A stretch of DNA of 64,000 bases. Origin: an uncultured bacterium (GTDB taxonomy: Bacteria; Oederibacteriota; Oederibacteriia; Oederibacteriales; Oederibacteriaceae). This document shows positions 10,192 to 55,992 of the stretch, piece after piece. Under the pieces are notes generated by a model. The model saw only the letters and a list, made by a program, of their open reading frames with translations. It ran no database searches and was not told the origin of the DNA. How positions within the stretch are numbered: position 1 is the first letter of the stretch; each line of letters starts with the position of its first letter. Both the position numbers and the translations under genes were made by a program. Location: contig OZ218778.1 of assembly GCA_965112635.1 (NCBI GenBank), forward strand, positions 1,845,807 to 1,909,806, in the 5' to 3' direction.

Positions 10192-12192
10192 ATGAAAAGT
10201 AATTCCAATAAGAGAAGCTATTTTCCTTTTTATTGTTTTTGGATAGTTGTAAGTTTATTTCTCCTCCTTTCTGTTTCCATGCTCCTTCAAATTGCGCTTG
10301 CCCAAGACAATGCTTCTCATGTTGCCTCTATATCTGTTGATGAGGGTGTTAAGGCTTATTTAGGGGGGGATTTAGATAAGGCTATTTTATCCTTTGAAGA
10401 TGCGTTAAATTCCGGTCAGGACGCCGAAAAAATAAAGGCTCTTTTAGTAAAAGCCCTGGTGGAGCGGAGCAACCAGTTGTTCGTGCAGGGAGATTTTACC
10501 AAAGCTTTTACTTACTCCAGCCGCGCCAAAGAGTTAGCTCCCAATAACCAGGAAGTGGCCTTAATTAATAGCCTTATCCTGCAAGCTAAAAGAGCCGTTG
10601 ATGTGCGGCCTATCAGAAAAACAGAAACGGTTTTGATCAGGGAGACCAGCACTGCTAACCGCCAGATGCAGAAGCAAATAGGGCAATTACTAGAGGCTTT
10701 CAAGCAGACCCAGCAGAAAATCTCCTTGTTGAATGTTTCACCCACAGCCGTATCAAAGTCGGTCGGCGCAGATATTATCTTTTATGTTTTATTGATTGGG
10801 GTGTTATTGGCCGGTGCGATTATCGTGTTTATTAGAGTGTGGTTTAGGTCCCACGAATCAATATTTACCCAGCAGCAAAATAAATTATTAGGTGTCATCT
10901 ATAACCAACAGCAAGTCCTGCTCAAAGATAACCAGAGGCTTGTTCCTGAGTCTACTCCAACCAACAAGGAAAGCATTAGCACGAGGGAAATGCTCAGCGA
11001 TCTCAATCCGCATGTCCGGGCCAGAGGCTTGGAGGTCTTGGCTGAGGAGCTCGAGCGCGAAAAGACTCCGAGCATTGTGGCCAAAAAGATCATTACCCCG
11101 TTTTTAAGCGAAAAAGACAATCGAGTCAGGGGCAATGCCGTTAAGGTTCTTTATAAATACGACGTTGAACAGGCGCGCGAGATCTTGAGGGAGATGTTTT
11201 GGAGTGGCAATGAATGGATGAGGCTTTCGGCAGCTTGGGTAATCGGGGAAGTAGCGGATCACGAGGGTGCGAGATGGATATTGCAGGCTATGGATGAGGC
11301 TCTGCCTCACCTGAAGCGGCGTTGCATCAAAACGATCCAGATATTTTTGAAGAATAGGAATCCACAATTACCCCTAGATCTTCATGACCAGATGAAGGAA
11401 ACGCTGGAAAAATTTAGGGATTATGTAGAAGAGGAAAACTCCCGACCTAATAGCCAGTCAGGAGTTTTGGGCACTACTACGGACAGTAAGGGGGGGGCTA
11501 CCGATGACAGTTCAAGCAGAAACATTTCGCCGAGGTGGAGGTACGTTTTAAAGAATTTATTTAGGAAACAGTGGCAAGCTCTAGAACGAGAGGTTCGGGA
11601 GCGCGAGCGGATAGCGTTCAAGTCCAGGGAAGACGTTGAATCTTTAGCTTTAGCAGAAAAGCAGAGGAATATTAGGCTTAGTACTGATATGGAAAAGTTG
11701 GAAAGGCAATATTTTGCCGTAAAAAAGAAGCTGGAAGAAGCAGAGAGCCAGTTTGCAGAATATAAAGCAGAGAATGACAGGGTGAGCAATCTGTTAAGTC
11801 AAAATTTGGCGGAGATCAATGAGCTCAAAAAGATCAAAGAAGATTTCAAAAAGGTCGTTGAAGAGAACAAAAACCTCCAGAATATGCTCATGGATAAAAG
11901 TAGTTCTTGGGCCACGGTTGTTCCAGGCGGGAGCCCTATTCTCGATGAAAGCAAAAGCAAAGCGGATGATGTACAGAATCTGGTCAATTCATACACGGAA
12001 TTGGAAAAACAGTGGCAAGCCATTTTGGCGGAGAAAGAAAGCCGTGTGGGTTCCCTTAAACAAAAAATGACGGAAACGGACGAGAAAGTCAAAAAAAAGG
12101 GGGAAGTTCGTAAGAAAGTAAGCAAAGAAAAAAGCAGCAGTATCGGAAGGTTGTATTATTTTGTGAACAAGAAATTGGGCGGTCTGCAGTAA
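10192..12192 (+). CDS. Membrane protein: N-terminal TM, periplasmic TPR-like region, second TM, cytoplasmic HEAT/PBS-lyase-like repeats and a long Lys/Glu-rich coiled coil
   Basis: Hydrophobic segments FPFYCFWIVVSLFLLLSVSMLLQIALA and IIFYVLLIGVLLAGAIIVFIRVWF. HEAT-like NPHVRARGLEVLAEEL..DNRVRGNAVKVLYKY..WMRLSAAWVIGEVAD. Coiled-coil C-terminus. sigma70-like promoter candidates in the AT-rich spacer 10086-10191. Confidence 0.5.
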   Translation: MKSNSNKRSYFPFYCFWIVVSLFLLLSVSMLLQIALAQDNASHVASISVDEGVKAYLGGDLDKAILSFEDALNSGQDAEKIKALLVKALVERSNQLFVQGDFTKAFTYSSRAKELAPNNQEVALINSLILQAKRAVDVRPIRKTETVLIRETSTANRQMQKQIGQLLEAFKQTQQKISLLNVSPTAVSKSVGADIIFYVLLIGVLLAGAIIVFIRVWFRSHESIFTQQQNKLLGVIYNQQQVLLKDNQRLVPESTPTNKESISTREMLSDLNPHVRARGLEVLAEELEREKTPSIVAKKIITPFLSEKDNRVRGNAVKVLYKYDVEQAREILREMFWSGNEWMRLSAAWVIGEVADHEGARWILQAMDEALPHLKRRCIKTIQIFLKNRNPQLPLDLHDQMKETLEKFRDYVEEENSRPNSQSGVLGTTTDSKGGATDDSSSRNISPRWRYVLKNLFRKQWQALEREVRERERIAFKSREDVESLALAEKQRNIRLSTDMEKLERQYFAVKKKLEEAESQFAEYKAENDRVSNLLSQNLAEINELKKIKEDFKKVVEENKNLQNMLMDKSSSWATVVPGGSPILDESKSKADDVQNLVNSYTELEKQWQAILAEKESRVGSLKQKMTETDEKVKKKGEVRKKVSKEKSSSIGRLYYFVNKKLGGLQ

Positions 12193-26563: not shown

Positions 26564-26605
26564 GATTAATCCGTAATTTTAAGCGATGACGCGAAAGGAT
26601 TTTTG

Positions 26606-29251
26606 ATGTTTGGAAAGTTGCTGACCGACATTTTCGGGACCAAGCATGGACGGGCCGTCAAGGTTTTGATGCCCAGGGTCGAGGCTATCAATGCTGTGGA
26701 GCCGCAGATCCAAAAGCTCAGTGATGACGAGCTGAAGAACAAAACAGCCGAGTTCAAGGACCGGTTGAGCCATGGCGAGACTTTGGACGACCTCCTGGTG
26801 GAAGCGTTTGGCGTGGTCAGGGAGGCCAGTAAAAGGACCATGGGAATGAGGCATTTTGACGTCCAGCTTCTGGGCGGCATGTTCCTGCACCAAGGCAAAA
26901 TTTCCGAGATGAGGACAGGCGAAGGAAAAACCCTGGTGGCTACCCTGCCTGTTTATCTCAACGCCCTGACCGGCAAGGGCGTGCATGTGGTCACGGTCAA
27001 CGATTACCTGGCCGAGAGGGACAGCCTGGGCAGGGGTAATTTCAAGGGCATGGGAAACATCTACCAGTTCTTAGGGCTGACCGTGGGCTGCATCAAGCAT
27101 GACCTGCCTACCCTGGAGCGCCAGGCGGCCTACCACGCGGACATCACCTACGGGACCAATAATGAGTTTGGTTTTGATTATTTGCGGGACAATATGGTCA
27201 CGCACCCACAAGAGCGGGTGCAAAGGGAACTGAATTACGCCATCGTGGACGAAGTGGACAGCATCCTCATTGATGAGGCCAGGACACCCCTCATCATTTC
27301 AGGGCCAGCCGAGGAATCCACCGATAAATACGTGAAAATCGACCGCATTATCCCCAGGCTCAATCCCTCCACGGACTATAAAGTTGATGAAAAAAGCAGG
27401 ACCGTGGCCTTGACCGAGGAAGGCGTGACCAAAGCCGAGAAACTCATCAACGTGGGCAACCTCTATGACAACGTGAACATCGAACTGGTGCACCATATCA
27501 ACCAGGCCTTAAAAGCCCACACTCTTTTCAAGCGGGACGTCGATTATGTGGTGAAGGCCGGAGAGGTCATTATCGTGGATGATTTCACGGGCCGGCTCAT
27601 GCCCGGCCGCAGATACAGCGACGGCCTGCACCAGGCTTTGGAGGCCAAGGAAAAGGTCGAGGTGGCCCGGGAGAACCAAACCCTCGCCACGATCTCTTTC
27701 CAAAACTACTTCCGTCTGTACAAGAAGCTTTGCGGAATGACCGGTACGGCGGACACCGAGGCCGCGGAGTTCTGGGAGATCTACAAGCTGGACGTGGTGG
27801 TGGTCCCGACCAACCGGCCCATGGTCCGGGAAGACGCGCCTGACCTTATCTATAAGGACAAAAAGCAGAAGATCAAGGACGTGGTCAACGAGATCGCGGA
27901 ACGGAGCCGCAAGGGACAGCCTGTGCTGGTGGGAACGGTTTCGATAGAGAAGAACGAAGAGCTTTCCGAGGCTTTGAAAAAACGGGGAGTACCCCATCAG
28001 GTCCTCAATGCCAAGCAGCACGAACGCGAAGCCGAGATCATCTCCTTGGCCGGCCAAAAAGGGGCGGTCACGGTAGCCACCAACATGGCCGGCCGGGGCG
28101 TGGATATCGTGCTGGGCGAGGGCGTGGTGGACCTGGGCGGTTTGCATGTCATAGGCACGGAACGGCACGAGAGCAGGCGCATCGACAACCAGCTCAGAGG
28201 ACGGTCGGGCCGGCAAGGCGACCCGGGTTCCAGCCGGTTCTACGTGGCTTTTGAAGACGATCTGATGCGCATTTTCGCCAACCAATGGGTCACCTCGCTG
28301 ATGGGCAAACTGGACGACCTGGACGGGGCTCTTACAGACCATCCCTGGGTGAGCCGGGGCATCGAAAGGGCCCAAAAGGCCGTGGAAGGGCATAACTTTG
28401 AGATCCGCAAGCACCTCATTGAGTATGACGACGTGATGAACAAGCAGAGAGAGGTCATTTATAGGGAACGGAGCTTGGTGTTGGAGGGGGCCAACCTCAA
28501 GCCCCATGTCCTGGAGATGATGCGGGATGTGGTCAGCGAACTGGTCGGACCTTACGCGCCGGCCAAAGTCTATCCCGAAGAATGGCCCCTCAAGGACCTG
28601 CAGGCCAGGGTCAAGCAGGACTTTCCCGTCGTGCTGGACCTGACCGGCGTGGAAATAGTCCGGCTGACCCGTGAAAACCTGGAGAATATCCTATACGACG
28701 AACTTTTAAAGGCCTACGAGAACAAGGAAAAAGAGGTCGGGCCGGACACCCTGCGGGAAATAGAAAGAGCGGTCCTTTTGCAGGTTGTGGACACCCAGTG
28801 GAAAGACCATCTGTACAACATGGACCAGCTCAAGGAAGGCATCGGCCTGCGGGGTTATGGTCAAAAAGACCCTCTGGTGGAATACAAGAGGGAAGGTTAT
28901 GAGATGTTCAGCGCTATGATCCAGCGCATCAAGGAAGAGACCGTCCAGTTCATCTTCAAGGTCAAGGTGGTGACCCAGCAGGCTCCAGCCAGCAGTCTAT
29001 TGCCCAGGCGTTACAGGGAAGAGCACCCGGAGTTCGACCGGGCCAAGGCTGTGGCTCCCCAGAGGCAGCCGGAGCCCGCGGCAGGTCCTTACGGCCAGGC
29101 GCCTTTTGGAGCGCCGCCAGGTTATCCGCCGCCCCAGGAAGAGTCTAGGGAAAAATTGCAACCCGTCACCAGGGACAAGCCAAAAATTGGGCGTAATGAC
29201 CCCTGTTTTTGCGGCAGCGGTAAAAAGTACAAGAAATGCCACGGGGCCTAG
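26606..29251 (+). CDS. secA: Preprotein translocase ATPase SecA
   Basis: [34 protein letters not shown] (Walker A), [19 protein letters not shown], and C-terminal Zn finger [14 protein letters not shown]; ~881 aa. Confidence 0.95.
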
Positions 29252-32508: not shown

Positions 32509-35175
32509 ATGGGCAGACGACTCGTTTTACTTATCATCCTATTTTGGTCTGTTTCGGCCTGGAAAGCTGAGGCGGCAGTGTACTGGTATATGGAGGCGCC
32601 CGGCTGGGTCGAACCCACCGGCAATCCCGATTGGACGAACCTGTCGTACTTTAATGTCTACAACGAGCTGACCACCACGGCCACAGGCCCAATCCTCGTG
32701 ACCTATACCCTGGCGAATGGTCTCACTTTTAAGCCCGTCTCTTTCGGATTACAGCCGTCCAGCGTCAACTATGACGCCGGCACCGGGGTGACCACCGTGA
32801 CCTATAATTTGGGCAGTATGGCCGGACAGACCAATAACTATGGTTATTGCGGCTTTGCTATCAATTACACCACGGTCAACCCCACGACCCTGATCCAGGA
32901 AAACCAGCAATTCACTGTGACAGCGACCCTGAGCGGGGCCAGCAGCGTCAGTGCCAACCCCCAGAGCTTCCAGGCGCCCGCTTTATTCGAGACCGTCGGC
33001 AAGAACATTGATCCCGACCCGATCGAGGCGGTGCCGAGCACGGCCACGGCCAACCTCTATTTGGAAACTTCGCAATATTATAACTGCTCCAACCTCGTGG
33101 TCTGGGATACGCTTCCCAACGGCACCTCCTACATCCCCGGCACCAGTTATCTGGATAACGAGACCAGCGATGAACCCGGGTCCGGGACCCAGCTCTGCCG
33201 TCCTGACGGGACTTCGCTGCTGGTGTGGTCTGTTCCAGCTGACCCTTGGACCCTGGCCGGGTCAGACCCCGTCCTGAGCTACGGGTTCACCATCAACTCG
33301 AATTACAGCGTTACGGGCTGCGACAGCGCCGGAGCGCCGGTCTATTGCACCGACATGCTGCCCAATCTCGTGGGTGACAGCTTTAATTACGCCAGCATCA
33401 GCGGCCAGTCCCCGGCCAACGCGGGATCCGCCCTGCAAACCGGTGTGTTTGCGGACATCGATATCGACGACCCCTCCATCACCAAGACCATCGGGAGCAT
33501 TACCGACAGCCAGGGTAACCCTGTTTCGGGTAGTTATGTCACGCCCGGCGATATCGTGACCTACAGCATCACGGTAGTTTCTCCGACGGCACCTACCCAT
33601 GACCTCAAGGTCAGGGATTTCCTGCCATCATCCATGGCTTTTTTGGGTTCCCTTACCAATTACACCACGACCGGAGGCGTGCCCGCGCCGACCCAGAGTT
33701 TTGTCAATTCCAATTTGTGCTACTGGACCTGGTCCGCGGATTTTCCCAAGGGCGGGTCCTGGAACGTCACCTTCCAGACCCAAGTGCTGGATAATACCTA
33801 TTTGCCCGACCCCGGGGCCTCGACCCTGACCAACATGGGCGATTTTTGGGACACTAATACCTCGGGGACCACCTCGGGGTTGGGACAGTACGATGCCCCG
33901 GATTTGACCTACCAGAACAATGTGGTTACGACCAAGAGCGCCAGCAAAAGCACGGGTACTGGCGGCGATATCATTAACTATACGATCGCGGTCACCAATA
34001 ACGGCGGCAGGGCCATTAACAATGTTGAGGTCTTTGACACCATCCCGGCCGGCATGACCTATGTCAGCAGCACGCCCACGGCCAGTTCCGAGGCCGTCAA
34101 CGGGGACTCCAGCACCACGGTCAAATGGAACAACCTGGGGATTCTGAACCCCGGCAGTTTCCTGACCCTCTATGTGTCCGCCTCGGTCAATCCGGGCGAC
34201 CCGGGAGGGGAGACACTGACCAATTTTGTCGCCCCTGTTTTTTACTCCTCCCAGCTGACCCCTGGAGCGCCCGGGAGGAACTATTACAACGGCGTTACGG
34301 CTTTGGCCAGCGTGCAGGTGGCCACCTGGACCATGACCCCGACCCAGACCAGGACAGCGACCGCCACCAGCACGCAGACCTATACCGCCAGCGCGACCGC
34401 CACCCCCACCAGCACCGCGACCCAGACCTCGACGGCGACGCAGACCCTGACCAGGACCTATTCGCTTACCGGGACGCAGACTTTCACTCTCACGCAGACC
34501 CTGACCCCGTCCCTGACGCTGACCAGCAGTTACACGGCCACCGCCACCAGCACGGCCACGCAGACATCCACTTCGACCTTGACGCTGACCCCATCCGAAA
34601 CTTTTACCCCCAGCGAGACGGCCACTTACAGCCAAACCTCCACGCAGTCCTATACGGTCACCCTGACCCTGACCCCTTCCAAGACTTTTACCCCCAGCGA
34701 GACGGCCACGATCACTTTGACCTGGACCATCACCTGCACTTCGACCAATTCCTATACCAGCACGCAAACCCTGACCCCTTGCCAGACCCTGACGCCATCC
34801 CAGACCCTGACGCCATCCCTGACCCAGACCCATACCCCAACCTTGACGCCGTCCCACACCGCGACAGCCACGCCTACCTTTATCACCACACCTCCCGCAG
34901 TCGGGACATCCTTTATTTATCCCTCACCGGCTACCGGGGACACGGCGGCCATTGCTTTTTTCATGTCCGTGCCAGGGAACTTCAAGATACGGGTGTATAA
35001 CGAGGCAGCCGAACTGGTGGAGACCGTAGAGGGGAATATGCAGGCAGGGCCGCAGTTGAGCATGATCCATACTAGGGACTATGTTTCAGGAGTTTACTTG
35101 TATATTATCAAGTTGGATTACGGGTCGCAGGGTTCCATCAAAATCGGTCCCAAGAAGTTCATTGTGTTGCATTAG
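32509..35175 (+). CDS. Secreted cargo protein: DUF11/CARDB-like repeat domains, TQT/TxT stalk, FlgD-Ig/CTD-like C-terminal domain
   Basis: Signal peptide. DUF11-type segments (VVWDTLPNGTSYIPGTSY; TIAVTNNGGRAINNVEVFDTIPAGMTYVSS). Stalk TQTRTATATSTQTYTASATATPTSTATQTSTATQTLT... (~34330-34900). C-terminus FIYPSPATGDTAAIAFF..FKIRVYNEAAELVETVEG......GVYLYIIKL. Confidence 0.7.
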   Translation: MGRRLVLLIILFWSVSAWKAEAAVYWYMEAPGWVEPTGNPDWTNLSYFNVYNELTTTATGPILVTYTLANGLTFKPVSFGLQPSSVNYDAGTGVTTVTYNLGSMAGQTNNYGYCGFAINYTTVNPTTLIQENQQFTVTATLSGASSVSANPQSFQAPALFETVGKNIDPDPIEAVPSTATANLYLETSQYYNCSNLVVWDTLPNGTSYIPGTSYLDNETSDEPGSGTQLCRPDGTSLLVWSVPADPWTLAGSDPVLSYGFTINSNYSVTGCDSAGAPVYCTDMLPNLVGDSFNYASISGQSPANAGSALQTGVFADIDIDDPSITKTIGSITDSQGNPVSGSYVTPGDIVTYSITVVSPTAPTHDLKVRDFLPSSMAFLGSLTNYTTTGGVPAPTQSFVNSNLCYWTWSADFPKGGSWNVTFQTQVLDNTYLPDPGASTLTNMGDFWDTNTSGTTSGLGQYDAPDLTYQNNVVTTKSASKSTGTGGDIINYTIAVTNNGGRAINNVEVFDTIPAGMTYVSSTPTASSEAVNGDSSTTVKWNNLGILNPGSFLTLYVSASVNPGDPGGETLTNFVAPVFYSSQLTPGAPGRNYYNGVTALASVQVATWTMTPTQTRTATATSTQTYTASATATPTSTATQTSTATQTLTRTYSLTGTQTFTLTQTLTPSLTLTSSYTATATSTATQTSTSTLTLTPSETFTPSETATYSQTSTQSYTVTLTLTPSKTFTPSETATITLTWTITCTSTNSYTSTQTLTPCQTLTPSQTLTPSLTQTHTPTLTPSHTATATPTFITTPPAVGTSFIYPSPATGDTAAIAFFMSVPGNFKIRVYNEAAELVETVEGNMQAGPQLSMIHTRDYVSGVYLYIIKLDYGSQGSIKIGPKKFIVLH

Positions 35176-37783: not shown

Positions 37784-37912
37784 GCTTTTTCCCTTTCCGT
37801 AACTTGATAATCGATCCCTAACTCTCTATACTTTAACAGAAAACTATTGTAATCTCATTTGCAGGCACGAACAATACCTGAAGAAAAACCATTGGTAAAA
37901 AAGAAGAAAACC

Positions 37913-39079
37913 ATGTTCCCAGGGAAACGACGAATCATCGCCTTGTTGGTGGTCTTTGGGGCCGTTGCGGGTTGGTCGGCAGTCCATGCTCAGACGAATA
38001 CTGCGACCAATACGGATACTGACACTGAGACGGCTACTGCAACCGCAACTCCCTCCGCTTCCGCGACAACCACCATGACTCTTACAGTCACCCCAACTCC
38101 CACGGCTTATTTATCCCTTATGAAGGTTGTGACGCCCAGCGGGGTTATCCTTCTTCCCGCGACTACCCAGACCCCAGTCACTTTTACCATCAGCTATTCC
38201 AATACGGGAGGCGAAGTTCTGACCAATGTGATGATTTGGGATACGCTTAATACCGGTTTGTGCTACCTGACCACCACGGCAGGGGCAGCCCTGACCGCCG
38301 ACAGCGTCATTTCTTGCACTTCAGGTTCTTTCCTGGTCTGGAACGCGCCATCTCCTCTAGTTCCCGGGAGCAGCGGCAATATTGTTTTTTCAGCCCTAAT
38401 TAATAATGTGCCCTATTACACCAATATAACTAATTTTGCGCTGGCCGGAGCCGACCAGCTAGCCAGCCCCGTGACCTCCACGACCACCAGTTCAATAATT
38501 ATTTATACCCTTCCTCAGGCGGGGAGCGCTCCTCCTACCTTTGTGTTGAATAATTTGTCCCTGCAGTTATCTTGGACCCCCGGCATAGCTGGAAGTTATC
38601 CTATAGCGGGATATCCTGTTTGGCGCAGCGCTGACGGTGGCTTTTCCTACTCGCAAATCACTTTGACCGGAAGCAGCATTACCAGTTGCACCGACCAACT
38701 TCCCGCAGTCCAAACGTTTATTTACCTCGTGAAGGTGATGGATACCCTGGGCAATGAAGTCGCTTATCCGCCTCTTGTCCTTAAACCTTTGCCGGTCAGC
38801 ATGGCACTGGACCACAACAGTTTTAATCCAGCCAAGGGCGGAACCTTGAACGTCAAATATCACCTCAGACAGCTCGGCAGTGTGTCCATCTACATCTATA
38901 ACCTCAGGGGAAATCTGGTCAGGAAATTGGTGGATGACACGGAGACTTTCGGGGAACATGTGGCCCAGTGGGACGGAAAGAACGGACAAGGAGATACAGT
39001 CAGCAGCGGGGTTTATTTGTTCCATTTAGAAGCCGCGGGAGGGGATGCCGTGAACCAGAGAGTGGCGGTCATCAAGTGA
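37913..39079 (+). CDS. Secreted cargo protein: short TxT stalk, DUF11-like and Fn3-like domains, FlgD-Ig/CTD-like C-terminus
   Basis: MFPGKRRIIALLVVFGAVAGWSAVHA signal peptide, then TNTATNTDTDTETATATATPSASATTT. C-terminus NSFNPAKGGTLNVKYHL..VSIYIYNLRGNLVRKLVD...AQWDGKNGQGDTVSSGVYLFHLEA. Its stop TGA 39077-39079 overlaps the ATG of the next gene. Confidence 0.7.
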   Translation: MFPGKRRIIALLVVFGAVAGWSAVHAQTNTATNTDTDTETATATATPSASATTTMTLTVTPTPTAYLSLMKVVTPSGVILLPATTQTPVTFTISYSNTGGEVLTNVMIWDTLNTGLCYLTTTAGAALTADSVISCTSGSFLVWNAPSPLVPGSSGNIVFSALINNVPYYTNITNFALAGADQLASPVTSTTTSSIIIYTLPQAGSAPPTFVLNNLSLQLSWTPGIAGSYPIAGYPVWRSADGGFSYSQITLTGSSITSCTDQLPAVQTFIYLVKVMDTLGNEVAYPPLVLKPLPVSMALDHNSFNPAKGGTLNVKYHLRQLGSVSIYIYNLRGNLVRKLVDDTETFGEHVAQWDGKNGQGDTVSSGVYLFHLEAAGGDAVNQRVAVIK

Positions 39080-40059
39080 TGGATAATTTCTTTCACCCAG
39101 GAAAATGCAGGAAGATCAATCCCGTGATCTTTGCTTGCTTATTTGTATTGTTCCCAACTTTTTTTATTGGGGTCTTTCCCAGCTTGAGCTGGGGCGGGGG
39201 AGCAGGAACAACTGGCGCTGATATTATGGCAGAGGAGTTGGGGGCCAGGCCCAGGGGCATGGGAGGCGCTTATGGGGCTGTGGCCAATGACGCCAATGCC
39301 GTAGATTATAATCCAGCGGGATTAACTCAGATCCTAAGGTCCAATGCTACCCTAACCCACTGGATCGAATTGGACGGCACGACCCTTGATTTCATTAGCT
39401 ATGTTTTGCCCCTGGGAGCCATGGGGACCGTGGCGGGCAGTGCGACCCTCCGTCAAGTCCCTTCCATCAGCAATACGACCGCTGAACCGTCAGTCAATGT
39501 GGACGATATTCTGGTGGGTCTATCCGGGGCAACAAAACTGGAGAATTGGTGGCCTGGTTTGTCGGGCGGAATGTCCTTAAAATTTGTCAGCTCCACCCTG
39601 GGAAACTATACGGCTTATACGGGAGCCCTTGACGCAGGGGTCCTCTTGGAGGACCTGCCCTACCATTCCAAGGCGGCTTTGGCCATGGAAAATTTAGGTA
39701 TGCCTATCAAATACATTGATGTGGCCGACCCCCTTCCGTTTTGCTTAAGGTTGGCCGGCTGCAGTCAGATCTTTGAAGATAGCGTCAAGGAGCTATTAGT
39801 AGCCGCTGATCTCGTTCAACCAATCAATGGCTACGCCAACTTGGACATCGGGGCTGAATTCATTTACCTCGGGTTCGTAGCTTTCAGGGGAGGTTATACC
39901 TTGGATTTTCAGGAAGGAACAAGGGGGCTCGTGGGCGGCCTTGGGATCAAGTATGTTTGGGATAAGACCGATTACAGACTGGATTATGCCTACAACCCTT
40001 TTTACTGGAAAAATAGTTACACGCCCACCCATCTGATCTCTCTGTCCGTATTCTTTTAA
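39079..40059 (+). CDS. FadL/TodX/PorV-family outer-membrane beta-barrel (cargo-adjacent paralog)
   Basis: Signal peptide, GARPRGMGGAYGAVANDANAVDYNPAGL N-motif, C-terminal beta-signal ...LISLSVFF. ATG 39079 shares its A with the upstream stop (TGATG). Confidence 0.65.
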   Translation: MDNFFHPGKCRKINPVIFACLFVLFPTFFIGVFPSLSWGGGAGTTGADIMAEELGARPRGMGGAYGAVANDANAVDYNPAGLTQILRSNATLTHWIELDGTTLDFISYVLPLGAMGTVAGSATLRQVPSISNTTAEPSVNVDDILVGLSGATKLENWWPGLSGGMSLKFVSSTLGNYTAYTGALDAGVLLEDLPYHSKAALAMENLGMPIKYIDVADPLPFCLRLAGCSQIFEDSVKELLVAADLVQPINGYANLDIGAEFIYLGFVAFRGGYTLDFQEGTRGLVGGLGIKYVWDKTDYRLDYAYNPFYWKNSYTPTHLISLSVFF

Positions 40060-40872: not shown

Positions 40873-40907
40873 TTGCTTCAAAACCAAACTTTAAAGGAGG
40901 GTTAAGC

Positions 40908-43175: not shown

Positions 43176-45146
43176 TTGGGTTTAGTCTTATTATTATGCC
43201 CGCTTTTCTTTTGGCTTCAATGCGAAGACGCTTTTAACCTTCCCAAGCAGACCCTGTTGTATCTATTGCTGTTGCTCTCTTTGATCTTCTGGTGGACTAA
43301 ATCCGTGGAGTCTCGATTATTCTGGTATCCCCGGCATCTTGTACAGATCGTCCTGCTGGGCTGGCTGGCCTGCGGGATTTTGTCTGTTTTAGTGAACGGC
43401 TCCTCCGTCCTTGGCTGGGCCGCGTGGATCGAATGGCTGGCGCTCGTTGTTCTTTTTATTCTGGTCTTTGGCAGCATCGAGAACGACAGTCATCTCAATA
43501 TGTATTTTTCCCTGGCTTTAATTGCCTCAGGGTTGTATGGAGTTTATGGTTTTTTGCAATTTTTCGGAATAGACGTGATCCATTGGTCTTCCCTGGGCGC
43601 AGGCAGGATCTATTCGACCCTTGGGAATCCTGACCAATTAGCGGGCCAAATCGCTTTGGTTCTGCCCCTTGTCGCGATCTTTTTTGTTTTAGGCATCAAG
43701 CGTCTTTGGACCCTTCCCCTTTTTATGGTCCTGATTTGCGTCCTGTTCTTTACTCAATCCAAATCGGGACTTTTAGCCTCCTTTATCTCTTTCCTCCTCC
43801 TGGTCGTTGGAGTTCTGGTGTTCATGGGGCGGGCGGTTCTTCGGGAGCATCGGATCCAGGTGGTCACCTTGGTGGTAGTTTTTTTTGCCATAGCTTTTGC
43901 CAGCTTCATGGTTTCTCCTGGCAAAACTTCTCCCTCTTTGCCAACTTCCTTGTTCGATCTTAAACAAAGCTCTGCGTCGATCCGTATTTTTATCTGGAAA
44001 GGGGCGGTCCGGTTGATCGCAGAGTCCCCCCTTATAGGTCGTGGATTGGGGAGTTTTCAGGCGCTTAACCCCAGAGAGCAGGCGCAGGTCTGGCAGAGCG
44101 GAGGTTATGAAAGAACGGGGATCGATGTCCACGATGAGGCCTATGCGCATAATGATTATCTTCAGATGGCTGCTGAAGGGGGCCTGCTAACCCTGGTATT
44201 TTTCCTCGCATTTTTTATACTTATTTTCTCTAACGGGTTCAGCTATTTAAAAAAAGAAACCTTGCGCAACCGCCAGGGGGTCGTGTTGGCCTTAATGGCA
44301 GGATTGGCAGGGTTCCTTACTTTTGCGTTCTTTAATTTTCCGCTTAAGATGCCTTCTGTGGCGGCCACGGCGTTTGCTTGGGGCGCGATCTTGTGCCGTT
44401 ATGACGGTATTTTCGCTTCCGGCCGGGTCGTTGGCCTTGCCAAAGGAATTTTGGTCCATCCTTCCTTGAAAAAAGCGCTTGAGTCTTTGGGGGCCGTGGT
44501 ATTGCTTGCGCTGATGGTCTTTGTTTTCCAGGGATTTTTGGGCGGAGTTTTCTTTAAGTCGGGATTGCGGGCCATTGAAGCCCATAGGTCCCAAGATGCT
44601 TTGCCGTATTTGGATAGAGCCCTCAATTGTAATCCCTATAATATATCTTGCCTGTTCTATGACGCTTTAGCCTGGGAGGAGAGCGGTAACTGGCAGGAGG
44701 CCGTAAAACAATATAAGGCGACCTTGGCCCTTTATCCTTATTCCATGGGCGCTTGCTATAATCTAGCCAATCTGGAAAAAAGAGCAGGACGATATCAAGA
44801 AGCCGAGGAGTATTATTTAAGAGCCCTGGCTATCAAGCCGAACTATACCGACGCTTTGAACAATTTAGGGGCACTTTACTACCTTTGGGGGTCGAGCTTG
44901 AGGGACCCCTCCCTTAAATTGCAGGCCCAGCTTTATTACCAAAAAGCGGAGTTGCAATACGCCAAGGCCTTGCAGTACAGACCGGATTTTGTGGAAGCGC
45001 ATTTTAATTTGGGCGTTATTTACCTTGCGCTGGATGAAAAGGCGGGAGCAGAAAAAGAGTTGAAGCGTGTTCTGGAACTCGACCCGAATTATGACATGGC
45101 CAAGACCATTCTGAACAAGCTCAAGAAGAAGAAATCGAAGAAATAA
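43176..45146 (+). CDS. O-antigen-ligase (Wzy_C)-family polytopic membrane protein with C-terminal TPR repeats; candidate O-oligosaccharyltransferase
   Basis: More than 10 predicted TM helices. Wzy_C signature periplasmic loop (...DVHDEAYAHNDYLQMAAEGGLLTLVFFLAFF). C-terminal TPR repeats (AHRSQDALPYLDRALNCNPYN..., WQEAVKQYKATLALYPY..., YQEAEEYYLRALAIKPNY..., VEAHFNLGVIYL). Apparent TTG start. Confidence 0.65.
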   Translation: MGLVLLLCPLFFWLQCEDAFNLPKQTLLYLLLLLSLIFWWTKSVESRLFWYPRHLVQIVLLGWLACGILSVLVNGSSVLGWAAWIEWLALVVLFILVFGSIENDSHLNMYFSLALIASGLYGVYGFLQFFGIDVIHWSSLGAGRIYSTLGNPDQLAGQIALVLPLVAIFFVLGIKRLWTLPLFMVLICVLFFTQSKSGLLASFISFLLLVVGVLVFMGRAVLREHRIQVVTLVVVFFAIAFASFMVSPGKTSPSLPTSLFDLKQSSASIRIFIWKGAVRLIAESPLIGRGLGSFQALNPREQAQVWQSGGYERTGIDVHDEAYAHNDYLQMAAEGGLLTLVFFLAFFILIFSNGFSYLKKETLRNRQGVVLALMAGLAGFLTFAFFNFPLKMPSVAATAFAWGAILCRYDGIFASGRVVGLAKGILVHPSLKKALESLGAVVLLALMVFVFQGFLGGVFFKSGLRAIEAHRSQDALPYLDRALNCNPYNISCLFYDALAWEESGNWQEAVKQYKATLALYPYSMGACYNLANLEKRAGRYQEAEEYYLRALAIKPNYTDALNNLGALYYLWGSSLRDPSLKLQAQLYYQKAELQYAKALQYRPDFVEAHFNLGVIYLALDEKAGAEKELKRVLELDPNYDMAKTILNKLKKKKSKK

Positions 45147-45931: not shown

Positions 45932-47473
45932 ATGCAAACTCTCATCAGGGCATGTTTTGCTGTGGCATCAGGTATTTTGCTGGGCTTGAGTTTTCCCAAT
46001 ATTATAACCCCTGAATTCAGCGGTTGGACCTCCTGGCTGGTGTGGGTCGCCCTTATCCCGCTTCTTTTGATCCTGGAAAAGGGAAAAGCCCGCCAGGCTT
46101 TTTGCTTTGGATGGCTGGCGGGATTTGTTTATTTTTTCCTGTCCCTCTATTGGATCAGCCAAGTCCAGGAGTTGCAGGAATTTGCCTGGCCCGGCCTGTT
46201 GGCCCTGGCCCTCTATCTCGGTTTATATGTGGCCGTGTGGTGTTGGGCGGTGGTCTTCATAGAAAGGAACCTTGGTTTTTGGAGCTGGCTCATGGCCCCA
46301 TTCCTGTGGGCTTTGCTTGAATTCTGCCGGACCTATTTTTTAACGGGCTTTGCATGGAATACCCTGGCTAGTTCCCAATATTCCCAAAAGTTCCTGCTGC
46401 AGGTTGTTAATTTGACGGGGCAGGGAGGGCTCAGCGCTTTTATAGTCTTTTGCAATATAGCCCTTTATTTTTTGTGGCTTGATATCAAATACAAACATAG
46501 GGGCATAGGCGTCAGCTTATGCCTGGCTTGCCTGGTGCTGTTTTTGGGTTTGTTCTCTTACGGGGTTTATTTTGTTCTGATGTCTCAGACCGGGAAAACT
46601 TGCAGGGTGGCGGTCGTCCAGGGAAATATCGACCCTTCGGTTAAATGGAATAAGGAATTGTATGACCGGACCCTTTCGGTTTACCAGCGTTTGACCCTAG
46701 AGGCCGCGAAACAAAGACCCCAATTGATCGTTTGGCCAGAAACGGCCATTCCCGTTGTGCTTTTGTCCGACCCGCAGACCCTGGCCTGGTTAAGAAACCT
46801 GGCTAAAGAGTGCAAAATCCCCCTTTTGGTAGGCAGTTGCGATATCGCCAATCCTCTGGAAGCAAAGCCTGACCATGCGCAGTATTTGAATACGGCTTTT
46901 TTGGTCTCTCCAGACGGGGACATTTTGGGCCGCTATGACAAGATCCACCTGGTCCCTTTTGGCGAATTTATCCCTTTCAAGGATTATTTCCCTTATATCC
47001 AAAAAATAGCCGGCGGTTTTGGCGAGTCAGCGCCGGGCCGGGAGGCCAAGACCCTGGCTGTTGAGGGCAATTCTTTTGGCGTTCTGATATGTTTTGAAAC
47101 CATTTTCCCGGAGCTTTCCAGGTCGTTCGTCCGCCAAGGCGCTTCGTTTTTGGTGAGCATCACCAACGATGGATGGTACGGCTGGACGGCAGCTGCCTAT
47201 CAGCATGCCTCTTTTGCAGTGTTGAGGGCGGTAGAGAACGGCGTACCTCTGGCCAGGGCGGCCAATACCGGCGTTTCATTGGTCATCGACCAAAGAGGCA
47301 CGATCTTGGGATTTTTGCCCTTGTGGCAGGAGGGATTCCTGGTAAAAGATATCCGTTTGGGGACTGGTAAAACTTTTTATGCCAATTGGGGTGAATGGTT
47401 CACGGTGGTTTCGATATTGGTGGTCCTGGCCAGTTTTATTTTATATTTTATTCAAAGAGGCAGGAAGAAGTAA
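45932..47473 (+). CDS. lnt: Apolipoprotein N-acyltransferase
   Basis: N-terminal polytopic membrane domain plus C-terminal CN-hydrolase domain (RVAVVQGNI..LIVWPETAIP..HLVPFGEFIPF..ICFETIFPE..ITNDGWYG). Confidence 0.85.
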   Translation: MQTLIRACFAVASGILLGLSFPNIITPEFSGWTSWLVWVALIPLLLILEKGKARQAFCFGWLAGFVYFFLSLYWISQVQELQEFAWPGLLALALYLGLYVAVWCWAVVFIERNLGFWSWLMAPFLWALLEFCRTYFLTGFAWNTLASSQYSQKFLLQVVNLTGQGGLSAFIVFCNIALYFLWLDIKYKHRGIGVSLCLACLVLFLGLFSYGVYFVLMSQTGKTCRVAVVQGNIDPSVKWNKELYDRTLSVYQRLTLEAAKQRPQLIVWPETAIPVVLLSDPQTLAWLRNLAKECKIPLLVGSCDIANPLEAKPDHAQYLNTAFLVSPDGDILGRYDKIHLVPFGEFIPFKDYFPYIQKIAGGFGESAPGREAKTLAVEGNSFGVLICFETIFPELSRSFVRQGASFLVSITNDGWYGWTAAAYQHASFAVLRAVENGVPLARAANTGVSLVIDQRGTILGFLPLWQEGFLVKDIRLGTGKTFYANWGEWFTVVSILVVLASFILYFIQRGRKK

Positions 47474-51662: not shown

Positions 51663-52583
51663 TTAGAAATCAACGGTCAAAGAAAAGCGATGGGCCTCGC
51701 CTAAACTGGCATAAGGCACAAAGGCGTAATCAAAATGATAATACATCAAACCCAGTAAAAGGGAATAGCCAAAACCCGTCGTGAACATGAAAGGCAGGGA
51801 GGTCTGCTCGATCAAGCCGAGCCTGACTGCCAGGTCCTGCGCGCCCCAACGGGAGTTGTATTCCAATCCCAGATGGATCCCCAAATCCTGGCCAATGAAA
51901 TCATAGGAGGTTTCAGCGGAGGCCAGAATATTGCGGGGTTGTTTTGTTTCTTCCTGCTGGCCGCCGATGTTTTCCATGAGTTCTCCCAAGGCGAACTTTT
52001 TAGCGATCCCTATCCTCAACAGCAAAGGCAGGGAATATCCGCCGAGCTCGGACCCGAGATTCTGCAGGGTCACGCCCAAGGAAGTTGCTTCGGCAAAAGG
52101 CCGGATGATGCCTCCCACATCAAAAGCGAAGCCGCTAAATCCCGCTCCCACAAAATCTTCGTGCAGCAGTTTAGCCGTGATGCCAGCGTGGAAGATCTTG
52201 GAAAAGGTCGTGCCATAACTTAATTCGCCGAACAAGGCTGAGAAATTGAGGCTGTCCGCGCTGGGCACGAACATGCCCGGCAAAGGGAAGGACGGGTCCG
52301 TGGGCGTCATTTCATCGGCTTTGGAAACAGGGGAGGACCCCAGACGATTAACGCAAATGCTGAGGCCGCTATGGTTGGAAAGGGGCAGGGCATAGGCCGC
52401 GCTGTCAAAACTGGTGCCCAGAAACCAGTTGATATGGGTGAAAGAAAGTTCCTGGAAGGACAGGTCGCCGAGGCCGGCCGGATTCCAATAGGTGGACAAG
52501 GTGCCGCTGGCCACGGCGCAATAGGCGTCCCCCAGACTGGACGGCCGGGAACCGGTGGCTATCAAAAACTCTTCGCCAGCCAC
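51663..52583 (-). CDS. FadL/TodX/PorV-family outer-membrane beta-barrel (cargo-cluster paralog); true N-terminus probably lies upstream (~52667)
   Basis: GSRPSSLGDAYCAVASGTLSTYWNPAGL N-motif; C-terminal ...HRFSLTVDF. The in-frame upstream sequence encodes a signal peptide (KSQAIAFLILFSILTHPLNSFAAG) with no canonical start codon. Confidence 0.65.
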   Translation of the reverse strand: MAGEEFLIATGSRPSSLGDAYCAVASGTLSTYWNPAGLGDLSFQELSFTHINWFLGTSFDSAAYALPLSNHSGLSICVNRLGSSPVSKADEMTPTDPSFPLPGMFVPSADSLNFSALFGELSYGTTFSKIFHAGITAKLLHEDFVGAGFSGFAFDVGGIIRPFAEATSLGVTLQNLGSELGGYSLPLLLRIGIAKKFALGELMENIGGQQEETKQPRNILASAETSYDFIGQDLGIHLGLEYNSRWGAQDLAVRLGLIEQTSLPFMFTTGFGYSLLLGLMYYHFDYAFVPYASLGEAHRFSLTVDF

Positions 52584-52780: not shown

Positions 52781-53725
52781 TTAGAAGCTCGCTCCCAGGG
52801 ATATTCTTTGGGCATCACCCAGCTGGTCCATAGGCACAAAAGCGTAATCCAGGGCATATGCGCTGCTGCCGATTTCCAGGGCAAGCCCCACCCCGCAGCT
52901 CAGCAGCAGGTAGCTGCTGGTGGACTTGGCTATACCGCCGCGCAAGGCCAGGATGGTGCTGCCCATCTTAGGGGCCCATTCCAGGCCCAAATGAAACCCA
53001 TAGTCCTGGCTGTTCACCAGGTCGGTCAGGTCCAGGCTGGCCAGAATATCTTTGGCCGCCGTCTTATTCTCCGGGGCTAGGGCCAGCAGCTCCTCAATAT
53101 CCGTATAGCTCATCCTTTTGGCTATTCCGGCCCTGGCCATGAGGGGAAACGCAAACCCGTCCAATCCCGTGCTCATATTCTGCACAACCAGACCGGCTAT
53201 ATCCGTATCCGATAGTCTGACCTGCGCTCCCAGATCTCCTGCAAACCCGGTTGCGCTGTCGTCCAGCAGGTTTTCCTGGATACATTTGACATTGGCGCCG
53301 ACATTGAGCATGGGCAGCAGGCCCCAGCCAAACCCTATTCCGCCCATGATAGACCCTACACTGACCGTCTGGTTTGCAGGAGAGTATTGGCCGGACAAGG
53401 GGTTATCAGGGCTAGGCAATGTTTCATTGGTGACCGTGATGTCCGGGATACCCAGACGGCTTACAAACAGGCTTAACCCACTCTTTTTGCCTATGTTGAC
53501 GGCATAAGCCACAGTATCTAGGGAGATATTCTGCATCCACATCAGGTGGGTCAGGGAGATATCCTGGTATTGGAGTCTAGCCAGGCCAGCCGGGTTCCAA
53601 AAAGGGGCGAGAGCGCCGGTGACCACGGCTGTGTAGGCCTCAGCCATACCGCTGGGACGGGAACCGACCCCCAGCAACAGCTCATCGCCCGCGGTCTCTC
53701 CGGCCCCAAAGCAGTGGCTCACCAA
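52781..53725 (-). CDS. FadL/TodX/PorV-family outer-membrane beta-barrel (second paralog); true N-terminus probably lies upstream (~53785)
   Basis: GSRPSGMAEAYTAVVTGALAPFWNPAGL; C-terminal ...QRISLGASF. In-frame upstream RHYRIDKIITLICLCSLCLVSHCFGAG is a signal peptide lacking an ATG/GTG/TTG start. Confidence 0.65.
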   Translation of the reverse strand: MVSHCFGAGETAGDELLLGVGSRPSGMAEAYTAVVTGALAPFWNPAGLARLQYQDISLTHLMWMQNISLDTVAYAVNIGKKSGLSLFVSRLGIPDITVTNETLPSPDNPLSGQYSPANQTVSVGSIMGGIGFGWGLLPMLNVGANVKCIQENLLDDSATGFAGDLGAQVRLSDTDIAGLVVQNMSTGLDGFAFPLMARAGIAKRMSYTDIEELLALAPENKTAAKDILASLDLTDLVNSQDYGFHLGLEWAPKMGSTILALRGGIAKSTSSYLLLSCGVGLALEIGSSAYALDYAFVPMDQLGDAQRISLGASF

Positions 53726-53754: not shown

Positions 53755-55992
53755 TTATCTTATCAATACGATAGTGCCGCGTGATGTCTGGCCTCCTCCT
53801 GAGACTAGGTAAAAATACACGCCTGGAGCGACTGCCTGACCGTTGTCATTGGTACCGTCCCAGGCGGCGTAGGTGGTGCTGGTGGCTATGCTTTTGACCA
53901 GCAGGGCTGACATGGTCCGTATCTCAATGGTCGAGCCAGCCGGGATATTGGCGAATTTCAGCTCATGGTTCAGGGCTGTTTTGACCCTAAAAGGATTGGG
54001 ATAGACCACCAGGCTGCCGATGCTCACCAGAGCCTTGTTGCTGGTCAGGGGGGAGTAGGGGGTTATCTGGCTGAGGATATCGTTGTAACTCATGCTAAAA
54101 GTGTTTGAAATGAACACCCCGGTTGGGTCATTGCTGTTGACCTTGGCTACAAGATTTTTGCTGACCGTGCTGTTGGGATTGACGTTGGCGATGGTCCAGC
54201 TATACAGGCCCGGCCCAAGCACGCTATATCCGCTGTCAGCGGAAACAAAGGTCATGGTGTTGGGCAGGGTGTCCCAGATAAGGACATTTTGGGCGGGACC
54301 GCCCCTGTTCTGACAGGAAAGGGTCCAGGTCACCTGGTCACCCTGGTTTGCTTTGGGAACATTGGAGGATTTGGCCAGGGTAAAGCTGGCCGGAAGAGGA
54401 GTTGGAGTATTGGTTGGAGTATAGGTGGAGGTAAAGGTATATGTGTTGGTAAAGGTCGGGCCCGCCGTGGACTCACCGGAATATTTGGTCAGGAAGCCCT
54501 GATTATCTAGGCCTTTGACCGTGTAGTAGTAAAAGGTACTTGTACAGGCATTAGTGGCGGTGGAGTCGGTATAAGTAGTGCCACCCACTAAAGAACCGTT
54601 GATCTGTGCATAGCCAGTTCCCTCGGTCGTACTACGGTAAACATTGTAGCCTGAGATGCCGAAGGTGGAGATGGGGGGAGCAGACCAGGTGAGAGATACA
54701 GTAGAAGGACAAGTAATGGTGGCAACCAGACCAGAGGGAGGAACCAAGGTGCCCATGGCATTATAGAAGTTGATGCGGCCGTAGCCCAGGTACTGATTCC
54801 AGCCATTAGCATCATAGGCATGATCGGCGGCATCGACCTTATCCGCGGTTTTGGTGATGCGGGTGGAGACTTCATCATAGGACACGCCGTTGGACATTAG
54901 GACAGCGGCCAGGGCACAAACATAGGGACACGACATGGATGTGCCGCCCCAGTTTGCGTATGCGGAAGGTCCTCCGATTTCAGTGGTCAAATCGCCTCCC
55001 GGGGCAGCGCATATGACATAAGAGCTATAGGTGGAATAGGTTGCCCATTCATCATGGCTTCCCGAGGCGGCTATAGCGAAAGCTATGCCATCTGAGGCAG
55101 GATAAATGAGTTCATAGGTTCCGCTATCCCCTGACGCGGCCATTGCAATATGATGGTCGGTGGAATAGGCATTGCTTATGGCTGTATCAACGCCGGAAGC
55201 GCTCACAAAACCCCAGCTGCAATTAAAGACCTGCGCGCCGTGCTGGGAGGCCCAGTCGATTCCCGCGATAGCGTTGGCCGCTGTCGCGTCCGTCCAATTG
55301 GTCGTGATTTTTACAGGCATGATCAGGCAATTCCAAGCCATGCCCGCTATACCCGTACTATTATTAACTTCTGCTCCCAGTAGTCCTGAGATCTCAGTGC
55401 CATGACCATGGATATCCGTAGTATCAGAACTATTGGAGATCACATTCCAACCCGGGACAATTTTATCCATCAGGTCCACGTGACTGGAATTTATTCCGGA
55501 ATCAATCACAGCAACCACGGTGGAGGTTAACCCTTTGGCCCAGGGCATCATGGCGGGAGTGTTCCAAGCTTTGTCTGTTTGGGTGATAGGAATCGGCCAC
55601 AAGACTCCGCTCTGGTAATAGGTATCGTTGGGAAGGGAGTAGGGGGTATAGGCCGGATGGGCGTAATAATTAGGATAGGCGTTTTTGATCTTAATATGTT
55701 TTTTCGCCTTCCCAGCATAGTCCAGAACATTTTTACCATGGGGTATTTTTAGGTGATAGATATCCAATCTGCCCAGTTTTTTTATAACTTCACAGCCTAA
55801 TTCTTTGGCAATGGCACGCGCTTCTGATTCGGGGACTTTTCCTTTTTCAAATTCAATTATTATCTCCCCTTCCACGTAATCAGGTTTTTCTCCGGCATAA
55901 AGGGGGTGTAATAAAAAGGGGATTATCAAGAAAACAGCCAAAAAAATATACGATATTATTATTCCCAATAGTATGTATTTTTTCATTGGCAA
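53755..55992 (-). CDS. Secreted subtilisin-like serine protease (S8) with Fn3/DUF11-like domains, TxT linker and FlgD-Ig/CTD-like C-terminus
   Basis: Catalytic triad contexts VAVIDSGINSSHVDL (Asp), HGHGTEISGLLGA (His), GTSMSCPYV (Ser); N-terminal propeptide; TFTNTYTFTSTYTPTNTPTP linker; C-terminus VVYPNPFRVK..STIEIRTMSALLVKSI..AWDGTNDNGQAVAPGVYFYLV. Confidence 0.85.
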   Translation of the reverse strand: MPMKKYILLGIIISYIFLAVFLIIPFLLHPLYAGEKPDYVEGEIIIEFEKGKVPESEARAIAKELGCEVIKKLGRLDIYHLKIPHGKNVLDYAGKAKKHIKIKNAYPNYYAHPAYTPYSLPNDTYYQSGVLWPIPITQTDKAWNTPAMMPWAKGLTSTVVAVIDSGINSSHVDLMDKIVPGWNVISNSSDTTDIHGHGTEISGLLGAEVNNSTGIAGMAWNCLIMPVKITTNWTDATAANAIAGIDWASQHGAQVFNCSWGFVSASGVDTAISNAYSTDHHIAMAASGDSGTYELIYPASDGIAFAIAASGSHDEWATYSTYSSYVICAAPGGDLTTEIGGPSAYANWGGTSMSCPYVCALAAVLMSNGVSYDEVSTRITKTADKVDAADHAYDANGWNQYLGYGRINFYNAMGTLVPPSGLVATITCPSTVSLTWSAPPISTFGISGYNVYRSTTEGTGYAQINGSLVGGTTYTDSTATNACTSTFYYYTVKGLDNQGFLTKYSGESTAGPTFTNTYTFTSTYTPTNTPTPLPASFTLAKSSNVPKANQGDQVTWTLSCQNRGGPAQNVLIWDTLPNTMTFVSADSGYSVLGPGLYSWTIANVNPNSTVSKNLVAKVNSNDPTGVFISNTFSMSYNDILSQITPYSPLTSNKALVSIGSLVVYPNPFRVKTALNHELKFANIPAGSTIEIRTMSALLVKSIATSTTYAAWDGTNDNGQAVAPGVYFYLVSGGGQTSRGTIVLIR

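Follow-up and report, generated by a model that had tools for sequence, protein, structure and literature searches.

Seven open reading frames (ORFs) in a 64-kb stretch of DNA from an uncultured diderm bacterium of the Oederibacteriota (contig OZ218778.1; the whole stretch is called the window here) end in one family of C-terminal beta-sandwich domains of ~87–92 aa (C-terminal domain, CTD). Six of the seven also contain a low-complexity stalk, a (Thr/Ser-x)n dipeptide-repeat spacer that is expanded in the secreted CTD proteins of this organism and is present in none of the 29 other genes of the window (Fisher p = 3.6e-6). The hydroxyl group at every second position of the stalk is under strong selection at the level of the amino acid sequence. 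As to function, we lean, by a modest degree, towards reading the stalks as a whole as extended and probably O-glycosylated spacers. The stalk-bearing proteins are referred to as cargo a to f, a label that is reasonable because of their CTD matches and the PorV/PorQ-family genes that adjoin them.

Stalks and selection on their dipeptide register

The seven ORFs and their parts, numbered from the first base of the window, are the following.

1..7974 (+), cargo a, the giant ORF, open from base 1, its N-terminus lying off the window edge
1..7434 (+), stalk of the giant ORF, at least 2,478 aa, followed by a CarboxypepD_reg domain and then the CTD
7438..7635 (+), CarboxypepD_reg-like beta-sandwich of the giant ORF (PF13620, 32.8 bits), between stalk and CTD
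7696..7971 (+), CTD of the giant ORF (profile match aa 2566–2656, E = 3e-31), which aligns with the other CTDs
8031..8426 (+), small ORF of 131 aa, signal peptide and CTD only, with no period-2 stretch
32509..35175 (+), cargo b: signal peptide, DUF11-type head, stalk and CTD, from the translation and Pfam
34297..34911 (+), stalk of cargo b, aa 597–801 (205 aa), abutting the CTD
34912..35172 (+), CTD of cargo b, ~87 aa (profile match aa 799–888, E = 9e-18)
37859..39079 (+), cargo c: signal peptide, T-x module, DUF11, fn3-like region and CTD
37976..38122 (+), N-terminal T-x module of cargo c, aa 40–88 (49 aa), after a predicted cleavage site between AVHA and QTNTATN
53755..55992 (-), cargo d, a subtilase: Peptidase_S8, fervidolysin-type prodomain, fn3, DUF11 and CTD
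54388..54480 (-), T-x linker of cargo d, 20–31 aa, between fn3 and DUF11, 123 aa before the CTD
56088..59744 (-), cargo e, with an FG-GAP head; FlgD_ig-like domains and CTD at nt 56091–57026
57027..57557 (-), stalk of cargo e, aa 730–906 (177 aa), followed by ~220 aa of FlgD_ig-like domains and then the CTD
59810..63373 (-), cargo f, with DUF11; FlgD_ig-like domains and CTD at nt 59813–60733
60734..61888 (-), stalk of cargo f, aa 496–880 (385 aa), followed by ~220 aa of FlgD_ig-like domains and then the CTD

The alternation of threonine in these stalks is strict. The two alternating phases of the giant ORF hold 1187 and 106 Thr over 2514 residues with the register held throughout, and Thr or Ser occupies 1236 of 1239 alternate positions of its stalk in a single register, with an unbroken run of 1149 dipeptides. 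The Thr counts per phase are 80 vs. 2 in cargo b, 73 vs. 4 in cargo e and 143 vs. 4 in cargo f, and Thr and Ser together account for 92–98% of the T-phase in these three (78% Thr and 14% Ser in cargo b). The phase imbalance is 3–13 times the maximum reached in 2000 shuffles. The intervening x positions are filled by A, N, S, P, L, Q, V and I, in the giant ORF mostly by Ala or Asn, and just 17–32% of them are hydrophobic. Charged residues make up ~1–3% of the long stalks and ~6% of the 49-aa module of cargo c. Proline ranges from 1.4% in the giant stalk, which has 1.0% Gly, through 7% in b, e and f to 16% in the linker of the protease.

An earlier note on this DNA had proposed that every cargo is built of a head, a Thr-alternating stalk and sorting domains, in that fixed order. 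Its individual sightings were accurate: the module it placed at 34330–34900 in cargo b lies at nt 34297–34911 and runs directly into the CTD; the sequence it quoted from the protease, TFTNTYTFTSTYTPTNTPTP, is present at aa 513–532 of the subtilase ORF (53755..55992, minus strand); and the more than 300 residues it reported in 59810..63373 prove to be the 385 aa listed above. All four domains that it named as heads are recognized by Pfam, with DUF11 in b, c and f, FG-GAP in e and Peptidase_S8 in d, but the CarboxypepD_reg domain of the giant ORF is not a head, as it sits between the stalk and the CTD. The view of the giant ORF as an extreme form of the same module also holds, since it keeps its register as faithfully as the other stalks, has a CTD of the same family, and is followed by a PorV-like gene. 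The generalization does not hold. One of the seven CTD ORFs, the small ORF at 8031..8426, has no module, and the module does not always stand immediately before the C-terminal sandwiches: that of cargo c is N-terminal, and the protease linker is 123 aa upstream with DUF11 between. In all, the layout of head, stalk and sorting end fits four of the seven ORFs, fits one loosely, is contradicted in one, and does not apply to the one that lacks the module. Of the proposal that the stalk is a functional spacer, what stands is that it is a selected element placed between the head and the Ig-like (immunoglobulin-like)/CTD end in four of seven ORFs; the fixed position does not.

The CTD family was defined by an alignment of all seven domains and by searches with hidden Markov model (HMM) profiles. 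Its assignment in Pfam and NCBIfam is FlgD_ig/Por_Secre_tail, the latter being the type A CTD of the T9SS, or type IX secretion system, with scores that straddle the curated cutoffs. With TIGR04183 (cutoff 23 bits), cargo c (23.5) and the small ORF (25.7) are above the cutoff, cargo e (22.5), cargo f (21.8) and cargo d (17.9) are below it, and cargo b and the giant ORF give no match. With PF13860, FlgD_ig (cutoff 27 bits), c (34.3), e (56.7) and f (36.6) are above and d (18.6) is below. On visual inspection, cargo b to f and the small ORF each show a signal peptide, in which an A-x-A-type site comes after a hydrophobic core.

The giant stalk has the marks of a translated sequence. Its frame contains no stop codon in 7.5 kb, compared with 79 and 80 in the two remaining forward frames. 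In the giant ORF each of the four Thr codons has a share of 0.23–0.28, whereas neighbouring genes favor ACC (0.54); this even usage may reflect a balancing of tRNA supply, or selection against long perfect DNA repeats. Tandem repeats within the stalks have periods of 66, 84, 90, 102, 114, 126, 132, 138 and 144 nt, among them a period of 84 nt in the stalk of cargo b and periods of 66 and 132 nt in that of cargo f. All tandem periods, the spacings of direct repeats, and 86 of 86 self-alignment offsets in the giant ORF are multiples of 6 nt, so that the gain or loss of a unit never breaks the dipeptide register.

Repeats of this kind raise the question of whether the stalks are anything more than tolerated linkers inflated by slippage or unequal recombination of ACN-NNN hexanucleotides, without selection on the product. 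Such neutral expansion would account for the tandem repeats with periods of 66–144 nt, for the very recent copies in the giant ORF, some of which are 97.5% identical over 644 nt, for the range of lengths from 20 to at least 2,478 aa, for the occurrence of the module with many unrelated domains, and for its patchy presence among homologous CTD proteins. It is contradicted by the pattern of substitution. When repeat copies of 60–80% nucleotide identity were compared, the T-phase codons showed 235 synonymous and 14 non-synonymous differences, and the x-phase codons 88 and 181, a contrast that is forced in part by the in-register alignment of such repeats. Independently of the alignment, third codon positions are randomized (66% differ, which is near saturation) and codon use is equalized, and Thr/Ser has nevertheless been kept at 92–99.8%, which argues against recent neutral DNA expansion as the whole story. 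There are, moreover, no register-breaking 3-nt indels over 7.4 kb, and charged residues are excluded. The retention of Thr/Ser, the intact register and the exclusion of charge point to purifying selection on the protein, and neutral expansion is accordingly an unlikely account of the stalks.

Spacer function, its alternatives and the stalks of other organisms

According to the favored reading, that of a glycosylated spacer, the chain would be non-globular and extended, and would separate, and probably project, the head from the Ig-like/CTD end, which in turn would engage the sorting machinery and the cell surface. By analogy, the Thr/Ser array would most likely serve as a scaffold for dense O-glycosylation. 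O-glycosylation is suggested because Thr or Ser specifically has been retained, and because 2,478 residues of (T-A/N)n, without charge and poor in Pro, would be prone to beta aggregation if they carried no glycans. The glycans would stiffen the chain, prevent the aggregation of an uncharged, beta-prone sequence, and shield it from proteases. For the product of the giant ORF this would mean a fibril whose contour length is estimated at up to ~0.8 micrometres (2,478 residues × ~0.34 nm).

A number of observations weigh against this reading. With 1.4% Pro and nearly no charge, the giant stalk might adopt beta structure if it were unmodified. There are no genes for glycosyltransferase (GT) families, including those of the GT2 and GT4 types, in the 64-kb window. 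The Bacteroidota O-glycosylation sequon, D(S/T)(A/I/L/V/M/T), occurs 0–0.3 times per 100 aa of stalk, with 6 instances in the 2,478 aa of the giant stalk and none in b, c, d and e. In cargo c the module lies ahead of every folded domain, at the distal N-terminus, where it is not a spacer between head and anchor; lifting a head above its anchor therefore cannot be the sole role of the module. Apart from the PorV/PorQ family no T9SS component is present in the window (no SprA/Sov, PorK/L/M/N, PorU or PorZ gene), and cleavage of the CTD and surface anchoring are putative in this lineage. Finally, the stalk is missing from most CTD proteins elsewhere, which at the level of the family refutes the fixed grammar by the standard that the earlier note itself had set: it is absent from 61 of 64 CTD ORFs near PorV-like genes (80 loci from many phyla), from 22 of 24 metagenomic relatives of the CTD of cargo b (35–47% identity), and from 133 of the best 150 matches to the CTD profile among 1.84 billion representative sequences. 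These counts describe the family in other lineages.

Two proposals on the origin of the glycans were rejected. The Bacteroidota sequon mechanism was set aside, the sequon being essentially absent. A co-occurrence of glycosyltransferases with the stalks was also rejected, as the window holds just an epimerase and one protein that is the sole candidate for glycan transfer in it:

43176..45146 (+), membrane protein with a Wzy_C domain (O-antigen ligase family) and C-terminal TPR

This gene lies next to that for Lnt (45932..47473). The O-oligosaccharyltransferases of the PglL/PilO type also belong to the Wzy_C domain family.

The composition of the stalks has also been considered as that of an ordered beta structure, such as a beta-solenoid or a silk-like or cross-beta fibre with an all-Thr face, which would be adhesive or fibre-forming and would resemble the TxT and TxTxTxT ice- or crystal-binding faces of the antifreeze and ice-nucleation proteins of insects and bacteria. 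The strict two-residue periodicity is that of a beta-strand, Thr is beta-branched, the giant stalk combines mostly Ala or Asn at x with little Pro or Gly and almost no charge, and there are scattered strands in the AlphaFold2 models. These models otherwise show no confident fold: in single-sequence runs the mean pLDDT (predicted local distance difference test) was 37 for cargo b, with 25–39 in its stalk, and ~33 throughout 300 aa of the giant stalk, which is weak evidence for an extended, disordered chain, since no alignment was used and the folded domains of cargo b were also modelled poorly. The repeat units vary in length from 66 to 144 nt, giving no single fixed coil length, 7% Pro is spread along the stalks of b, e and f, and with 17–32% of x positions hydrophobic there is no clear core-forming face. 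An ordered beta fibre is thus quite unlikely.

A few stalks were found among CTD proteins elsewhere. Of the three such ORFs near PorV-like genes, one (L013) has a beta-helix head and a long stalk (aa 478–614) directly before the CTD, from which it is separated by a 6-aa gap, and the other two have short internal stretches. Among the relatives of the cargo b CTD, one (L103) has the same layout as cargo b and a stalk of similar composition; those that lack a stalk mostly have a conserved, non-repetitive segment abutting the CTD. The T-x stretches in 17 of the best 150 CTD-profile matches are mostly ~20 aa in length, and two are long. When the CTD profile was run against an index of 5.8 billion proteins there were only 3 matches, the domain being short and the database huge. 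A protein identical to cargo b is found on a Logan contig, and with its head as the query there was one partial orthologue (36% identity), which ends before the stalk, together with generic DUF11 proteins.

The reverse search, with the stalk of cargo f as query, gave 206 proteins, of which 120 were examined. All 120 have 73–320 aa of period-2 Thr. Twenty-three of them, unrelated metagenomic proteins, end in the CTD, with the stalk mostly stopping 84–96 aa from the C-terminus, and their heads are diverse: GH18, malectin, LamG, CBM5_12 and beta-helix. A beta-propeller is also among the heads of stalk-and-CTD proteins outside the window. The other 97 end otherwise, as judged by eye or by Pfam, in hydrophobic anchors with basic tails, dockerin-like segments, or SH3, cohesin or TadE-like domains. 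Named sources of these matches include Chloroflexota, Bdellovibrionota and FCPU426, and the arrangement of head, stalk and CTD is found in two FCPU426 proteins (P0272 and P0286). The locus of P0272 has, beside its PorV-like gene, a CTD cargo of 1646 aa without a stalk.

It appears from these searches that this organism has an unusual abundance of a stalk module that is optional and transferable, and that is neither universal for, nor specific to, CTD proteins. The module has been gained and lost among homologous cargo. Being optional, and occurring with other C-terminal anchors as well, it serves as a stalk for general use and does not belong to the sorting signal.

A role in export, and not at the surface, has to be weighed at this point. 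The stalk might be a tether that does not fold and resists proteases, leaving the CTD within reach of a PorV-like shuttle or translocon, or it might slow the periplasmic folding of large heads. In keeping with this, it ends a few residues before the CTD in cargo b, L013, L103 and most of the 23 stalk-and-CTD proteins, and in Porphyromonas gingivalis the processing of RgpB depends on the length of the junction preceding the CTD (PMC4804311). In most CTD relatives, however, the CTD is abutted by a folded Ig-like domain and a stalk is lacking; in cargo a, d, e and f the stalk and the CTD are set apart by one to three folded domains; and the stalk of cargo c is N-terminal. Hundreds to thousands of residues also exceed the needs of an accessibility tether. 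A role in export alone is therefore very unlikely.

The spacer reading has a bolder form, which is put forward tentatively and is rather doubtful. The stalks would be the diderm counterpart of serine-rich-repeat (SRR) adhesins, that is, Thr-x fibrils of up to at least 2,500 residues that are densely O-glycosylated by a system not dependent on the Bacteroidota sequon, and exported and displayed by a T9SS-like combination of CTD and PorV in a candidate phylum. If this were so, they would constitute a new class of mucin-like fibrils on the bacterial surface, and would indicate a new O-glycosylation pathway in the periplasm or at the surface.

PorV-like partners, neighbouring genes and gene calls

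Four genes of the PorV/PorQ family are present in the window, and all four adjoin cargo genes.

8433..10085 (+), PorV/PorQ-family barrel fused to TPR (NF033709, 161.5 bits; UPF0164 and TPR in Pfam), downstream of the giant cargo
39226..40059 (+), PorV/PorQ-family gene (NF033709, 104.8 bits), directly downstream of cargo c
51663..52583 (-), PorV/PorQ-family gene (NF033709, 102 bits), downstream of cargo d
52781..53725 (-), PorV/PorQ-family gene (NF033709, 93.1 bits), downstream of cargo d

All exceed the curated cutoff of NF033709, which is 90 bits, and the three that were aligned are 26–29% identical to one another. The occurrence of four PorV-like paralogues within 64 kb, with different cargo genes next to each, suggests that they are dedicated shuttle or anchor partners of individual cargo groups. 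Their best matches elsewhere are 32–34% identical and come from Candidatus Firestonebacteria, Elusimicrobia, FCPU426, Goldiibacteriota and Ignavibacteria. The pairing of a CTD cargo with a PorV-like gene is common in the 80 related loci, where the cargo often ends 100–250 nt upstream of the PorV-like gene. In a tblastn search of the window genes against all loci fetched, no close relative was found.

In the window the giant ORF is followed by the TPR-fused barrel (8433..10085) and by a HEAT/TPR-repeat protein (10192..12192). The same order of large CTD cargo, PorV-like barrel and HEAT/TPR-repeat protein is seen at 724–8317 of an FCPU426-related contig (L106). The small ORF (8031..8426) stands between the giant ORF and the PorV-like gene that follows, and the two ORFs have similar CTDs; as a CTD without cargo the small ORF could be a decoy, a regulator or a remnant. 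Downstream of the pair formed by cargo c and its PorV-like gene are a 198-aa ORF (40857–41453, plus strand) with a beta-barrel-like C-terminus (…LAIHYYF) and, after it, a 480-aa protein (41487–42929, plus strand) with an internal FlgD_ig/CHU_C-like domain at aa 353–405, which has a hydrophobic helix rather than the CTD at its C-terminus.

In public gene calls the giant ORF appears to be represented by no more than its last 114 aa (NCBI, P0001) or 225 aa (Logan, P0004), and the deposited genome probably carries no annotation for its stalk (at least 2,478 aa). The Logan call for cargo c (L001, 8768–9772) starts at an internal Met, giving a protein of 334 aa from which the signal peptide is missing, as is most of the N-terminal T-x module; for a secreted CTD protein the longer ORF, whose signal peptide is typical, is the more plausible one. 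That gene callers appear to have dropped the giant stalk, and have dropped the signal peptide and stalk of another cargo, is a practical warning for annotation. Further long ORFs overlap the stalks, in other frames or on the opposite strand, at 3702–4913 (-), 33628–34857 (-), 34125–35000 (+), 60431–61015 (+) and 61344–61874 (+). They were rejected as genes and are most likely artefacts of the extreme A+C bias of the strand; over positions 1–6000 the GC skew is about -0.39 and the AT skew about +0.40.

Comparison with known systems

Functionally, the closest systems are the SRR glycoproteins and the Ser-Asp (SD)-repeat adhesins of Gram-positive bacteria; structurally, the closest are the T9SS substrates of Bacteroidota. 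In SRR adhesins the binding region is projected by an extended stalk, which SRR2 forms (PMC7661464), and serine-rich repeat arrays are 400–4000 aa in length (PMC3131266). In Fap1, GspB, PsrP and SraP, as in the stalks described here, a hydroxyl group recurs at every second residue over a very long segment between the head and a C-terminal sorting signal, and the giant ORF is in the same size class. The differences are that the residue is Thr rather than Ser, that the host is a diderm, that glycosylation is here a prediction, and that sorting involves a beta-sandwich CTD with PorV-like partners instead of LPXTG and sortase. No accessory SecA2/SecY2/Asp and GtfA/GtfB locus is found in the window, which has a single SecA (26603..29251). 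The link with the SRR glycoproteins would thus be one of analogous mechanism, not of membership.

SD repeats lie between the A domain and the LPXTG motif of their proteins, and their glycosylation by SdgA and SdgB protects them from proteolysis (PMC3794999). The stalks share with the Clf/Sdr proteins a strict dipeptide repeat, of 25–275 units in the latter, between a ligand-binding domain and a sorting signal; the SD repeats have been proposed to span or extend from the envelope, and their Ser residues are glycosylated. Here the partner residue is uncharged and variable (A, N, S, P, L or Q), whereas in Clf/Sdr it is Asp, and the sorting system differs. Homologues of SdgA/B were not identified in the window. 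The stalk regions of staphylococcal proteins are extended, disordered chains whatever their sequence (PMC10367597).

The substrates of the T9SS in Bacteroidota have, like the cargo described here, a signal peptide, a head, one or more Ig-like domains, a beta-sandwich CTD and partners of the PorV family. In RgpB the catalytic domain is followed by an immunoglobulin-superfamily (IgSF) domain, for which a role as a spacer has been suggested, then by a short linker and the CTD (PMC4804311). Bacteroidota cargo thus use folded Ig domains and a short linker where this organism, which is not a member of the Bacteroidota, has Thr-x stalks. In Archaea, Ser/Thr-rich clusters of S-layer glycoproteins are O-glycosylated (PMC6098224). 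They resemble the stalks in being hydroxyl-rich segments near a C-terminal membrane anchor, but they are short, lack a strict dipeptide period, and belong to another anchoring system.

The Pro-Thr (PT) box linkers of CenA and Cex of Cellulomonas fimi, and of other secreted glycoside hydrolases and cellulosomal proteins, have period-2 Thr, are O-glycosylated and extended, measure 20–60 aa, and are dominated by Pro. The linker of the protease (TYTPTNTPTP; 20–31 aa, 16% Pro) is the only module in the window that resembles them, and the T-x linkers of ~20 aa in 11% of the CTD-family proteins (the best 150 profile matches) are also PT-box-like. The long stalks differ in their 1.4–7% Pro and in their lengths of 177 to at least 2,478 aa. 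Membership in the SRR glycoprotein, Sdr, PT-box and Bacteroidota O-glycoprotein classes fails on the defining features of each class.

In the literature searched, which was incomplete, no earlier description of Thr dipeptide stalks was found for T9SS-type cargo or for Elusimicrobia. Low-complexity stalks next to sorting signals have been studied well in Gram-positive pathogens and hardly at all in diderms or in T9SS-type cargo. That an optional stalk stands outside the CTD signal matters for predicting the architecture of T9SS cargo, and the stalks offer a concrete substrate with which to seek an unknown O-glycosylation system in candidate phyla. They are noteworthy for their strictness and extreme length, and represent not a new principle but a lineage-specific version of known low-complexity stalks.

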